Shown piece after piece: positions 4,420 through 48,345 of a stretch of DNA of 64,000 nt. The notes beneath the pieces are model-generated. The model made no database searches. It saw only the letters and a program-made list of their open reading frames with translations, and was not told the origin of the DNA. Numbering within the stretch: the first letter of the stretch is position 1; each line of letters starts with the position of its first letter. This DNA comes from Candidatus Saccharimonadota bacterium (lineage in GTDB: Bacteria; Patescibacteriota; Saccharimonadia; Saccharimonadales; JAXHMH01), in contig JAXHMH010000004.1 in NCBI GenBank assembly GCA_034521515.1, forward strand, positions 64,485 through 128,484, read 5' to 3'. The position numbers were made by a program, and so were the translations under genes.

Positions 4420-4946
4420 GAATCACGGCTGGTCAGCTAAAAGGAAGATTGTTTGATGATCCGCCAAGTGCACGGGCACATCCAATGTCCGACAGGATTA
4501 AAAACGCGCTGTTTAACAGCTTGGGTGATATAAAGGGGTTGCACTTTTTAGATGGTTTTGGAGGTACTGGGGCTTTGTCATTTGAGGCCATAAGTCGCGG
4601 AGCATCACATGTAACAGTATGCGAGCTTGATAACGGCGTTGCCAAAAGTCTTCAGGGCAATATTGCAAAGCTTGGGCTTGAGTCACGCATTCAATTGATT
4701 GAAAAAAGTGTCTACAGCTACATCAACCAGCAGCCAAAGCCGTTTGATGTTATCATCGCTGACCCACCCTATATGGAGTTTTCTAAACAGAAATTTGAGC
4801 GTTTAACTAAAGTATTAAAACCAGATGGATTGCTTGTCTTATCGTACCCTAGCGCCGCCGATATACCATGGATTGCTGGGCTTGAGCTAGTCAAACAAAC
4901 TCAATATGGCAACGCAGCCCTGGCATTTTATCGACATGTTTCGTAG
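4416..4946 (+). CDS. rsmD: 16S rRNA (guanine966-N2)-methyltransferase, RsmD family
   Basis: MRITAGQLKGR N-terminus, FLDGFGGTGALSFEA SAM site, ADPPY motif; ORF-track start 4377 trimmed to ATG 4416. Confidence 0.8.
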   Translation: MRITAGQLKGRLFDDPPSARAHPMSDRIKNALFNSLGDIKGLHFLDGFGGTGALSFEAISRGASHVTVCELDNGVAKSLQGNIAKLGLESRIQLIEKSVYSYINQQPKPFDVIIADPPYMEFSKQKFERLTKVLKPDGLLVLSYPSAADIPWIAGLELVKQTQYGNAALAFYRHVS

Positions 4947-5030
4947 AATATGTTGAGTTTCTTGCGCGAGTGGTGGCTCAAGTGAAACGTGAGTTCATCG
5001 TAGACACTTGTCCCGTAGTGAGCTCTGGAT

Positions 5031-5115
5031 GCGGCGGTGGCGGAATTGGTAGACGCGCTAGTCTTAGGAACTAGTATCGCAAGATGTGGAGGTTCAAGTC
5101 CTCTCCGCCGCACCA
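5031..5115 (+). tRNA. tRNA-Leu (anticodon TAG), class II, CCA encoded
   Basis: Acceptor GCGGCGG/CCGCCGC+A+CCA, D arm GCG-GAATTGGTAGA-CGC, anticodon stem CTAGT/ACTAG with loop CTTAGGA, long variable arm, T arm GGAGG-TTCAAGT-CCTCT. Confidence 0.92.
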
Positions 5116-5412
5116 AGAATTCAACTACGGGACGCTAGTCCTCGAAACAAGCGCCTTGCGCTGCTACGGGGTAAACTTAGGAACTAGTGCCTCACGTGGC
5201 GTGGAGGTTCACCATATCATCCGATATGGTGCCCTGTCGGATGACAGGGCAAGTCCTCTCCGCCGCACCAAGAATTCAACTACGGGACGCTAGTCCTCGA
5301 AACAAGCGCCTTGCGCTGCTACTGGGTAAACTTAGGAACTAGTGCCTCACGTGGCGTGGAGGTTCACCATATCATCCGATATGGTGCCCTGTCGGATGAC
5401 AGGGCAAGTCCT
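5116..5412 (+). repeat. two tandem 155-bp units, each ending in a tRNA-Leu 3'-half pseudo-copy
   Basis: AGAATTCAAC restarts at 5116 and 5271. The units differ at one base (5168 g vs 5323 t). Each contains CTTAGGAACTAGT...GTGGAGGTTCA + 40-nt insert + AGTCCT. Confidence 0.9.
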
Positions 5413-5433
5413 ATCATCCCCTAACCAAACACC

Positions 5434-5462
5434 AAAAGACCGGTAATCCCGGTTCTTTTTGT
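5434..5462 (+). terminator. putative intrinsic terminator after the tRNA-Leu repeat block
   Basis: AGACCGG-TAATC-CCGGTTCT hairpin (one bulge) followed by TTTTTGTTT. Confidence 0.5.
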
Positions 5463-5499
5463 TTATGTGGAGTATTATTAGGTATAATTATCTTTAACT

Positions 5500-6807
5500 A
5501 TGGCATTATCAACTCAACCATACAAAGGCGCGCGTGATTTTTATCCAGAGGATAAGCGCGTACAAGACTACATGTTTAGCGTTATGCGCGACGCAGTAGA
5601 GCAGTTTGGCTATGAATCATACGATGCACCAATACTCGAGCCTCTAGAACTCTACGCCGCGAAAACCGGGCAAGAGATTGTCGATGAGCAGACTTACACT
5701 TTTACAGATAGGGGTGATCGGCAAGTTGCCATAAGGCCCGAAATGACACCTACGGTAAGCCGAATGGTCGCAGGACGCCGCCAGGAGTTGGCTTATCCAC
5801 TACGTTGGTACTCTATTCCTAATCTGTGGCGCTACGAGCGACCACAACGGGGCAGATTACGCGAGCACTGGCAGCTTAATGTTGATTTGTTTGGATTGCC
5901 TGGCCTAGAAGCTGAACATGAGATTATCTTACTGGCCGACCAGATCATGAAACGATTCGGTGCCAAAAGAAACACCTACGTTATCCGCCTTAACAGCCGT
6001 GAGTTAATGGATGCTGTGCTCGGGGAATATATAGGTTTGGATGAGACACAAAGCCACACCATGCGCAAGCTGATAGACCGCATGCACAAACTTGACGATA
6101 CGGCCGTAGAATCCCAGATGGATGCAATTTTCAGCCCCACTCAAAGAGATGGTGATGCCTACTCTAAACTCAAGGCCTTTTTAGAGATTGAAGATTTACA
6201 AGAGATTCCGGTTGAGCTACAGAAGCACGAGTCAATTGTTAAGCTTCAGAAGCTTATGGAAATGCTCAGAGACTCGTTTGTTTCAAATGTGCGGTTTGAC
6301 CCAACGCTGATGAGAGGGTTTGATTACTATACAGACGTAGTGTTTGAGATTTTTGATACGCATCCAGATAATAATCGATCAATGTTTGGTGGCGGACGAT
6401 ATGATGGTCTGGTTGGTCTGTTTGGTGTTGATCCAGTGCCAACTATCGGTTTTGGAGTTGGAGATGTAACTTTAAAGAATTTCTTAGAAACACACCAGTT
6501 GCTGCCAGAACTGCAATCGCCAGTCGATGTTTACGCGGTACTTATAGGTGACGTATACACACCAGCACAGCGAGCAATCACGGAGCTGCGTGAAATGGGC
6601 ATTAATGTTGCCGTAGATAGTTCTGGCCGAAAGGCTGACAAACAAATAAAAGCCGCCGTAAAACAAGGCATTCGTCACGCGGTTTTTATTGGTGAAAAAG
6701 AGCTCGATAATCAGCAATTTACGCTAAAAGATCTTAAAACCGGACAAGAAGAAGCCCATAGTCTTCAAAAAATTGTCAGCATAGTTAAAGACTATCGCAG
6801 CAGGTAG
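5500..6807 (+). CDS. hisS: histidyl-tRNA synthetase
   Basis: 435 aa; class II motifs RPEMTPTVSRM, FDYYTDVVFE, GGGRYD; anticodon-binding C-terminal domain. Confidence 0.92.
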   Translation: MALSTQPYKGARDFYPEDKRVQDYMFSVMRDAVEQFGYESYDAPILEPLELYAAKTGQEIVDEQTYTFTDRGDRQVAIRPEMTPTVSRMVAGRRQELAYPLRWYSIPNLWRYERPQRGRLREHWQLNVDLFGLPGLEAEHEIILLADQIMKRFGAKRNTYVIRLNSRELMDAVLGEYIGLDETQSHTMRKLIDRMHKLDDTAVESQMDAIFSPTQRDGDAYSKLKAFLEIEDLQEIPVELQKHESIVKLQKLMEMLRDSFVSNVRFDPTLMRGFDYYTDVVFEIFDTHPDNNRSMFGGGRYDGLVGLFGVDPVPTIGFGVGDVTLKNFLETHQLLPELQSPVDVYAVLIGDVYTPAQRAITELREMGINVAVDSSGRKADKQIKAAVKQGIRHAVFIGEKELDNQQFTLKDLKTGQEEAHSLQKIVSIVKDYRSR

Positions 6808-8587: not shown

Positions 8588-8732
8588 CACTACGTACTAC
8601 GTACTACGTACTATGTACTAAGTACTAACCACCAGGCATTATCTAGGTACTAGGTACTAGGTACTATGTACTAAGTACTACGCACTAGGTACTGTGTACT
8701 AAGTACTATTATGTACTGTGTACTAAGTACTT
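8588..8732. repeat. heptanucleotide array, about 18 x TACT(A/G)NG in two blocks (8588-8629, 8641-8732)
   Basis: Read directly: cactacg tactacg tactacg tactatg tactaag tactaac ... tactagg tactagg tactatg tactaag tactacg cactagg tactgtg tactaag. Confidence 0.95.
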
Positions 8733-23766: not shown

Positions 23767-23886
23767 CCTGCCCGTCTTGTCAGACAGACAGGCGGGCCTG
23801 CCCGTCTTGTCAGACAGACAGGCGGGCCTGCCCGTCTTGTCAGACAGACAGGCGGGCCTGCCCGTCTTGTCAGACAGACAGGCGGG
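23767..23886 (+). repeat. four perfect tandem 30-nt palindromic units
   Basis: CCTGCCCGTCTTGTCAGACAGACAGGCGGG x4; 11-nt arms pair with one G-T wobble and one mismatch. Confidence 0.95.
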
Positions 23887-24013
23887 CGCCGAAATAAAAA
23901 TGTAGCAAGTTGGGTGCTTGCCCCGCAGTAATGTGTAGTATTTACTGACGGAATGAGGCTGAAATTAAGATGTAGCACTTGCTTCTGTAGCTTTGTGATA
24001 CCATATTAATATT

Positions 24014-48259: not shown

Positions 48260-48345
48260 GCAGGAATAGTGAAGCGGTCAAACACATCAGAAATAACTCC
48301 CTCTGTTTGCGGGGGTCAAGCCAAGACTTGACCCTTGATTACGTG
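48260..48345 (+). pseudogene. tRNA-Tyr-derived pseudo-copy
   Basis: 48260-48291 matches the first 32 nt of tRNA-Tyr at 29/32. The anticodon stem-loop is deleted. The T-arm position is replaced by hairpin GGGTCAAG-CCAAGA-CTTGACCC. Confidence 0.6.

Follow-up and report, generated by a model that had tools for sequence, protein, structure and literature searches.

We consider two 155-bp tandem units that stand between the intact tRNA-Leu(UAG) gene and hisS in the window (the whole 64-kb stretch of DNA analysed here), which belongs to a metagenome-assembled genome of Candidatus Saccharibacteria (TM7). The explanation that we prefer, and to which we give a probability of about one half, is that the units are non-functional attR-type partial tRNA copies, remnants of site-specific integration into tRNA-Leu(UAG) that were later duplicated in tandem. 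The anatomy of the units, their chimerism and their absence in relatives are observed directly, as is the use of this same tRNA, with the same block structure, by integrase-bearing elements. Past integration would account for how far the copied block extends, where it lies and why it is chimeric, as well as for the lack of units in relatives and the hypervariable surroundings. It does not tell us why a double hairpin stands at the putative crossover, why each unit has an additional anticodon arm, why an inverted repeat surrounds the tRNA or why there is no integrase. The kind of feature is familiar; the insert in the T loop and the tandem amplification are what is new.

Anatomy of the tandem array

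The local gene order is RecG, an unknown gene, an RsmD-like methyltransferase (a Pfam Cons_hypoth95 match), tRNA-Leu(UAG) and hisS, and the features discussed below are collected in Table 1. ARAGORN calls the intact gene tRNA-Leu(tag) and the Rfam tRNA model gives it 58.8 bits (E=5e-12), in agreement with the earlier note on this DNA, which had read it as an intact tRNA-Leu(TAG) from the letters alone. TRF reports a period of 155 with 2.1 copies (2.05), 99% matches and a score of 629 at 5095-5412. When the two copies are compared directly, 5095-5257 and 5250-5412 are the same save for one mismatch, 5168 G versus 5323 T. The two 155-bp tandem units that had been proposed are therefore confirmed; the period stands, but the boundary moves, the repeat starting at 5095, within the T loop of the intact tRNA, and not at 5116.

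Each unit is a 5'-truncated tRNA-Leu copy that runs from the anticodon loop to the CCA. The unit opens with the leader of the tRNA, copied in inverted orientation, after which come a degenerate anticodon arm and a short hairpin. The anticodon loop and 3' stem that follow are perfect (the tRNA sequence at 13/13 positions), and next to them stand a non-resident variable arm, a T arm split by a double hairpin, the resident T-stem 3' strand, the acceptor strand and ACCA. The segments that had been named as repeats of the tRNA are all exact copies: CTTAGGAACTAGT at 5176-5188 and 5331-5343, GTGGAGGTTCA at 5201-5211 and 5356-5366, and CAAGTCCTCTCCGCCGCACCA at 5250-5270, the last of which matches the tRNA at 21/21 positions when counted from 5250. 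Calling the units 3' halves was right in so far as they are partial tRNA-Leu copies, but it overlooked the extra degenerate anticodon arm (5133-5151). What had been taken for a decayed end of the second unit is the place where the array stops: a tRNA 3' end, diverged in sequence, with the only terminator right next to it. On sequence comparison this 3' end is a candidate for the displaced original one of the tRNA.

The units are not called as tRNAs. ARAGORN finds only the intact gene, the Rfam tRNA model has no match on 5116-5430 at E<=10, and no GCGGCGG 5' acceptor strand occurs within the units, so that the description of redundant tRNA-Leu pseudo-copies with a T-loop insertion holds under these tRNA finders. 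Across 4800-5700, at E<=10, tRNA is the only match to Rfam 15 (T-box, tmRNA and ribozymes included), and ARAGORN finds no tmRNA. A T-box leader for hisS and a tmRNA-like gene are both rejected, there being no model match and the mimicry being of tRNA-Leu. Within the 64-kb window the unit, its motifs, its hairpins and its 5' part have no second locus.

No plausible protein-coding gene is found in 5116-5499 among ORFs of at least 60 aa. Those that touch this interval are a 69-aa frame at 5084-5293 and one on the minus strand ending at 5116, and both overlap the tRNA or the repeat. A coding repeat is rejected, since 155 is not a multiple of 3 and successive units fall in different frames, and since the 69-aa frame overlaps the tRNA. 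The transcription unit of the tRNA could start at the sigma-70-like match at the end of the RsmD-like gene, in a promoter scan whose match count is no higher than the shuffle expectation. Because the only terminator stands after the array, we infer that the units are probably co-transcribed with the tRNA as a long 3' trailer, which would be removed in processing.

Table 1. Coordinates of features at the tRNA-Leu(UAG) locus of the window, and of T-loop inserts at related loci (last three rows).
Feature	Position	Strand	Basis
Weak sigma-70-like promoter match CTGGCA-18-TAGAAT, end of RsmD-like gene	4920..4949	+	Consensus scan alone
Decayed tRNA-Leu 5' half: GCGCGAGTGGTGG, 23-nt insert, GTAGACA, anticodon-arm-like GTCCCGTAGTGAGCT	4964..5024	+	Local alignment
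Left arm of inverted repeat GTCCCGTAGT; imperfect extension to 5037	5010..5019	+	Repeat search and shuffles
Intact tRNA-Leu(UAG), encoded CCA	5031..5115	+	ARAGORN and Rfam tRNA model
Tandem repeat copy 1, TRF register, beginning in T loop of intact tRNA	5095..5249	+	TRF and direct comparison
Start of unit 1 AGAATTCAACTACGGGAC, right arm of inverted repeat, inverted copy of 5008-5026; again at 5271-5288	5116..5133	+	Repeat search
Degenerate second anticodon arm CGCTAGTCCTCGAAACAAG; again at 5288-5306	5133..5151	+	14/19 identical to tRNA 5056-5074
Att-like block, left part: anticodon loop and 3' stem, variable arm GCCTCACGTGGC, T-stem 5' strand, start of T loop; again at 5331-5366	5176..5211	+	
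40-nt double hairpin in T loop: H1 CACCATATC/GATATGGTG; H2 TGCCCTGTC/GACAGGGCA; again at 5367-5406	5212..5251	+	
Tandem repeat copy 2; one difference from copy 1	5250..5404	+	TRF and direct comparison
Copy of resident tRNA 3' end: end of T loop, T-stem 3' strand, acceptor 3' strand, ACCA	5252..5270	+	19/19 identical
Diverged tRNA 3' end CAAGTCCTATCATCCCCTAACCA, end of array, terminator directly after	5405..5427	+	Sequence comparison; junction also in L081
Sole intrinsic terminator of tRNA and unit block	5438..5464	+	Terminator scan
hisS (histidyl-tRNA synthetase), conserved downstream neighbour	5500..6807	+	ORF list and homologue comparison
Type A modules	L039 1-640 and 1975-2112; also L009, L030, L064, L101/L103		
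Further T-loop inserts (types B, D)	L049 582-655, L054 2583-2653, L056 3180-3264, L174 2494-2572; L075 3800-3880, L162 175-330		
Sequence families of these inserts: type B, GAGCGAGGACGCGCGCAG, variable hairpin, then CGAGCACGCCGCAGCGG; type D (short), AGCCCGCGCCCACGGCCGGACGC			

The copy number of the array is taken from one assembly. An independent Logan contig (L081, SRR26473340) starts inside unit 2, at window position 5383, and reproduces the right-hand junction of the array and the hairpin sequence exactly; for this reason we regard the array sequence as real, with a copy number that comes from the one assembly. It is very improbable that short-read assembly of this metagenome-derived genome created the array or altered the number of its units. 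True, the one independent assembly of the species breaks inside the repeat, and this HisRS is present in only one other record. Against this, the Logan contig agrees across the junction and the hairpins, the two copies differ at one base, and analogous structures are found in many unrelated assemblies.

The leader of the tRNA and the inverted repeat

Directly upstream of the intact gene, its leader is itself a decayed tRNA-Leu 5' half. The alignment of this half with the tRNA-Leu of the related locus L019 scores 39, while shuffles give 20.9 +/- 4.3 with a maximum of 35. Its acceptor strand is GCGCGAG (the L019 type), and the 23-nt insert is placed in the D loop. The locus is thus a mosaic of tRNA-Leu pieces round one intact gene. 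A split or permuted tRNA is rejected: the GCGCGAG strand of the upstream pseudo 5' half is unable to pair with the CCGCCGC of the unit. A comparable duplicate of the leader and the tRNA start is seen upstream in L179.

The earlier note had also pointed out that 5010-5019 is perfectly complementary to 5124-5133, and had suggested a processing-stem-like helix bracketing the tRNA. The 10-nt complement is exact, and its length is reached by 8/2000 shuffles. In the predicted fold the inverted repeat of leader and trailer extends the acceptor stem. The complementarity is therefore real, but the left arm lies inside the decayed tRNA-Leu 5' half, and from its sequence it looks like an inverted duplicate of the pseudo-anticodon arm.

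Such pieces might also have come from a purely local rearrangement without a mobile element, in which direct and inverted tRNA duplications would arise by template switching at the tRNA's own hairpins (anticodon, variable and T arms) and at the terminator, followed by decay and a recent tandem duplication. Each window unit opens with an inverted copy of the leader, an upstream 5' pseudo-half is present, and the breakpoints fall in loops. In several species direct and inverted tRNA fragments alternate round hairpins, and L030, L039 and L174 have a tRNA 3' end, a terminator and a mirrored 3' end. We nevertheless find this explanation doubtful, as it leaves unexplained the non-resident variable-arm allele (the relatives having the resident arm), the wholly different terminators after successive fragments in L030, and the same block structure in the integrase-linked viral fragments.

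Chimeric units and their absence in the nearest relatives

The variable arm of the unit had been described as different from that of the tRNA. It does differ from the resident arm, but not by decay: TGCCTCAC(GT)GGC is an allele of six other Saccharibacteria tRNA-Leu genes, and the allele TGCCTCACGGC is seen in these 6 other genomes. The resident arm TATCGCAAGAT is common to the window tRNA-Leu and its nearest relatives. When the insert is spliced out, the unit scores 42 and 41 against other Saccharibacteria tRNA-Leu genes and 37 against the resident gene, and its T stem and acceptor strand are of the resident type, specific to this genome. Since the variable arm is the allele of other Saccharibacteria and the resident arm is shared with the nearest relatives, the unit is a chimera; judged by sequence comparison, it is of a non-resident type to the left of the T loop and of the resident type to the right.

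The nearest relatives, L176 and L179, have a HisRS that is 72% identical, and the genome, metagenome and protein collections contain no HisRS above 72% identity besides the source MAG and one Logan contig. Both relatives retain the synteny of RecG, RsmD, tRNA-Leu, hisS and tig (trigger factor after hisS). Their tRNA-Leu has the same body and variable arm, ATCGCAAGAT, as that of the window, and the acceptor stem differs by compensatory changes. Neither has any units at its tRNA-Leu locus, which is the outcome of the comparison with relatives that had been suggested. In L176 hisS is followed by tig, a small ORF and then, about 1.6 kb on, an IS1595-family transposase gene (5398-6291).

From this arrangement we infer the following history. 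Recombination, in the T loop or close to it, would have taken place between the gene and an element whose tRNA-Leu look-alike extended from the anticodon loop to the CCA. Downstream of the restored gene a chimera would have been left, with an element-derived anticodon loop and foreign-type variable arm on the left and a resident-type T stem and acceptor strand on the right. The element body, its integrase included, would then have been lost, and later an unequal exchange between short repeats within the 155-bp remnant may have given a second tandem copy of it.

Several properties of an att remnant are present. A direct partial copy of the tRNA, from the loop to the 3' end, lies beside the gene, with 100% identity over 5176-5188, 5201-5211 and 5250-5270; the copy is chimeric, its variable arm non-resident and its T stem and acceptor strand genome-specific, as is also the case in the viral contig L182; and the same tRNA is targeted by integrase-bearing elements (L182 and L190), though these have the CATCCGC acceptor type. 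On the other side, a textbook att remnant is contiguous, and here the block of identity is divided by the 40-nt insert in the T loop. Simple integration predicts neither the extra degenerate anticodon arm nor the inverted copy of the leader, and in the collections searched no close relative offers a clean empty or occupied site.

Integrase-bearing elements that use tRNA-Leu(UAG)

We now turn to the elements themselves. Among the viral contigs scanned, 16 contain the tRNA-Leu 3' end of the common Saccharibacteria type. Six of these, from IMG/VR (L184, L185, L188, L190, L194 and L196), have a partial tRNA-Leu(UAG) copy and no tRNA gene called, while L182 and L189 have a partial copy and an intact tRNA-Leu on the same contig. 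The partial copy of L182, compared with its own tRNA, shows 13 nt of identity at the anticodon loop and stem, another variable arm, and then 30 nt of identity up to the CCA, which is the pattern of the window unit. A PF00589 tyrosine integrase gene lies at most 300 nt from the fragment in L182 (E=4e-26) and in L190 (E=2e-24). From this pairing of fragment and integrase it follows that tRNA-Leu(UAG) is the attachment site of integrase-bearing elements whose att block has the same extent as that of the unit. The search for integrase-type att sites, which had been proposed as a check, has thus given the best lead. The combination of a partial tRNA-Leu(UAG), from the anticodon loop to the CCA, with an integrase makes L182 2192-3493 and L190 745-1969 candidate attP-int modules.

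The partial tRNA-Leu copies of the viral contigs have the CATCCGC acceptor type, in contrast to the CCGCCGC of the window, and that no viral contig matched the window's CCGCCGC 3' end or its hairpins counts against integration as the origin of the units. Scans of the viral contigs for the window hairpins, the tRNA 3' end, the variable arm of the unit and the type A and type B motifs described below gave nothing, or chance matches inside coding sequence. Pfam finds no integrase domain in 10 window ORFs, and no integrase or other mobility gene is present between or beside the repeats (5116-5499 and these 10 ORFs). By eye, no integrase is seen among the gap ORFs of related loci.

Among known systems, the partial tRNAs of tyrosine-integrase attL, attR and attP sites are close to the units. 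Both are direct copies of the 3' portion just downstream of an intact gene, both comprise a block from the anticodon loop to the CCA with a non-resident type upstream of the T arm, and the integrase-bearing viral contigs, whose blocks are built alike, make use of this tRNA species too. The window differs in having no integrase or cargo and only 61 nt from the end of the tRNA to the block; moreover, a 40-nt double hairpin interrupts its T loop, the remnant stands there twice in tandem, and the arms of an inverted repeat flank the tRNA. In the tycheposons of Prochlorococcus, sequential integration pushes older partial tRNAs outward (bioRxiv 10.1101/2020.12.28.424599). The resemblance to such tRNA-seeded islands lies in the streamlined host genome, the hypervariable region beside a tRNA and the several partial tRNAs, older ones further out. 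Unlike them, the 'island' of the window is a few hundred bases long and has no genes, its fragments have structured inserts, and a tycheposon-type integrase or replication module is not seen here. Fragments of tRNA genes that are mis-called as tRNAs in prokaryotes have also been described, and these non-canonical partial tRNAs are attributed to the integration of genetic elements (RNA Biol 2023, PMC9897764). The window fragments differ in that neither ARAGORN nor Rfam calls them, and in making up a tandem array that has an insertion inside.

The interval between tRNA-Leu and hisS in other Saccharibacteria

Our comparison set consists of about 160 related Saccharibacteria loci from genome and metagenome scans, with a plus-strand tRNA-Leu(UAG) in 78. 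Over these loci, tRNA-Leu(UAG) upstream of hisS is a common synteny. The gap between the two genes is hypervariable, from 21 bp to 3.9 kb, and most of its ORFs are singletons. Analogous tRNA-Leu fragments are present in about 10 of the 78 loci with tRNA-Leu (about 1/8), often preceded by the tRNA 3' end in mirror image. Decay increases with distance from the tRNA, the outer copies tending to lack the CCA, and in L030 each unit has a different terminator. The outward decay and the differing terminators fit successive integrations.

Saccharibacteria have tiny genomes and few recognised mobile elements. If the units are indeed remnants of integration, tRNA-Leu(UAG) would be an integration hot spot in this group, and this would help to explain how nearly every species comes to have its own set of genes between tRNA-Leu and hisS. 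In that case fragments of this sort should be masked in tRNA annotation, and they can be used for mapping past integrations.

The double hairpin and the T-loop modules

The 40-nt insert had been described as two hairpins, and the predicted fold agrees. In the MFE fold the two hairpins are adjacent and have 8 pairs each; in the DNA they are perfect 9-bp inverted repeats. The fold has -25.9 kcal/mol (z=-5.6). The hairpin loops, AUCC and GGAU, are mutually complementary, and H2 matches the reverse complement of H1 at 14/22 positions, with compensatory pair changes. The CCTGTC...GACAGG hairpins have no other copy in the 64-kb window. The whole unit folds at -66.9 kcal/mol (z=-5.2 versus shuffles), with a predicted helix of 12 pairs and one mismatch, GUGGCG-U-GGAGG / CCUCU-C-CGCCGC, that is followed by ACCA.

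In the fragments of other species the T loop is broken at the same place by modules of types A, A', B and D. Type A is a three-helix module of about 90 nt in the T loop of tRNA-Leu pseudo-copies. Compensatory changes are found in 20/28 of its pairs, and single-stranded GAGAA, UUGCAAGG and CGGGG are conserved. A covariance model for it (R1) comprises GAGAA, the hairpin NNGCC-NGU-GGCNN, UUGCAAGG, a long helix and the CGGGGUCGC hairpin. R1 finds 14 type A copies in the related loci, all beside tRNA-Leu genes, both tRNA-Leu(UAG) and tRNA-Leu(CAG), and sometimes two in tandem; L039 has at least 5 copies within 2.2 kb. The same model finds no type A module in the window. At permissive thresholds, Rfam recognises no family besides tRNAs in the type A modules and related loci. 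The strong covariation of these inserts (20/28 pairs) hints at selection on structure rather than pure debris, and in this respect stands against a past integration as the whole explanation. A guide-RNA (omega-RNA-like) role for the combination of a module, the 20-nt tRNA 3' end and a terminator is set aside, as the right flank of type A is inconstant (L064) and TnpB or IscB is not seen. On the minus strand of L030, 6239-6294 matches the type III hammerhead ribozyme with 41.5 bits (E=7e-6), below the Rfam gathering score of 48.5.

With such structure at hand, one may ask whether the units are functional RNAs, tRNA-Leu mimics released from the tRNA transcript. Each unit would then fold as a minihelix of acceptor and T stem that has ACCA at its end and a kissing double hairpin where a tRNA has its T loop. 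Its task would be either to regulate the downstream hisS or to present RNase P, the CCA-adding enzyme or a tRNA-targeting factor with a decoy or a processing signal. The unit does fold far better than shuffles, with the 12-pair helix before the ACCA. H2 is a reverse-complement paralogue of H1 with compensatory changes, the tRNA-identical segments are 100% conserved while the variable arm is different, the units, probably part of the tRNA's transcription unit, lie immediately before the gene of an aminoacyl-tRNA synthetase, and in other species the type A modules, which occupy the same site, show strong covariation. We consider a function of this kind quite unlikely. No Rfam family matches, there is no covariation evidence for this unit, and the nearest relatives are without units; the last copy, and many copies in other species, lack the acceptor strand and CCA. 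Moreover, the variable-arm sequence GGCG, which is common, is in itself enough to give 4/6 of the 'acceptor' pairs, and the tRNA imitated is tRNA-Leu although the gene downstream is hisS.

Alternatively, the 155-bp unit in the register 5095-5249 may be a miniature non-autonomous integrative element, with a replacement tRNA 3' end on its left and the double hairpin on its right, which was inserted into the T loop by an integrase encoded elsewhere, in two tandem insertions. The register of the repeat starts and finishes in the T loop, and one unit inserted between T55 and C56 gives the observed structure, the diverged old 3' end and the old terminator remaining at 5405-5464. Both hairpins are palindromes of the kind bound by proteins. 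Other Saccharibacteria have the different modules at this T-loop site, with the multiple type A copies of L039 among them. An element of this sort is possible, though on balance we think it unlikely: the unit is at a single locus in 64 kb, the viral contigs scanned have no copy of it, no recombinase is nearby, a 155-bp circle is a poor recombination substrate, and one mismatch between the copies fits a recent duplication equally well as two insertions. Palindromic elements of the MITE, REP and RPE kinds are similar in being short hairpin-forming inserts inside a redundant copy of a structured-RNA gene. They differ from the 40-nt insert of the window, which has no other copy in 64 kb, defines no family and lacks terminal inverted repeats with a target-site duplication on either side. 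MITE and REP elements are known by multiple dispersed copies with such repeats and duplications; the unit, like its hairpins, occurs at one locus in 64 kb.

A broader proposal is that the window double hairpin and types A, A', B and D belong to one unrecognised class of small structured elements in the T loops of redundant tRNA-Leu copies, either RNA-level parasites, ribozyme-like, or functional CCA-ended mimics of the tRNA top half released from the tRNA transcript. We regard it as a long shot. The structured T-loop inserts may be a sign of an RNA, or a small element, of a new kind, and the modules of other Saccharibacteria are worth follow-up apart from the window locus.

Other repeats in the window

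Some 120 nt after tRNA-Thr(GGT), at 48260-48316, there is a pseudo-copy of positions 1-63 of tRNA-Tyr (z=8.2). The anticodon loop has been destroyed, and the copy stops precisely at the T-loop GGT. Next comes the hairpin GGGTCAAG..CTTGACCC, and an rpmG-like ORF lies downstream. The stop of the pseudo-copy at this GGT is counted in favour of the units being remnants of integration and, together with the module insertions at the same site in other species, makes the T loop a recurrent breakpoint.

Two further repeats are recorded in the window. Four perfect tandem copies of a 30-bp hairpin-forming unit, CCTGCCCGTCTTGTCAGACAGACAGGCGGG, stand after a stop codon at 23767-23887; their sequence is unrelated to the tRNA-Leu hairpins. 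An imperfect heptamer array of ACTAGGT / ACTAAGT, with about 18-20 copies, lies between two ORFs at 8589-8731.
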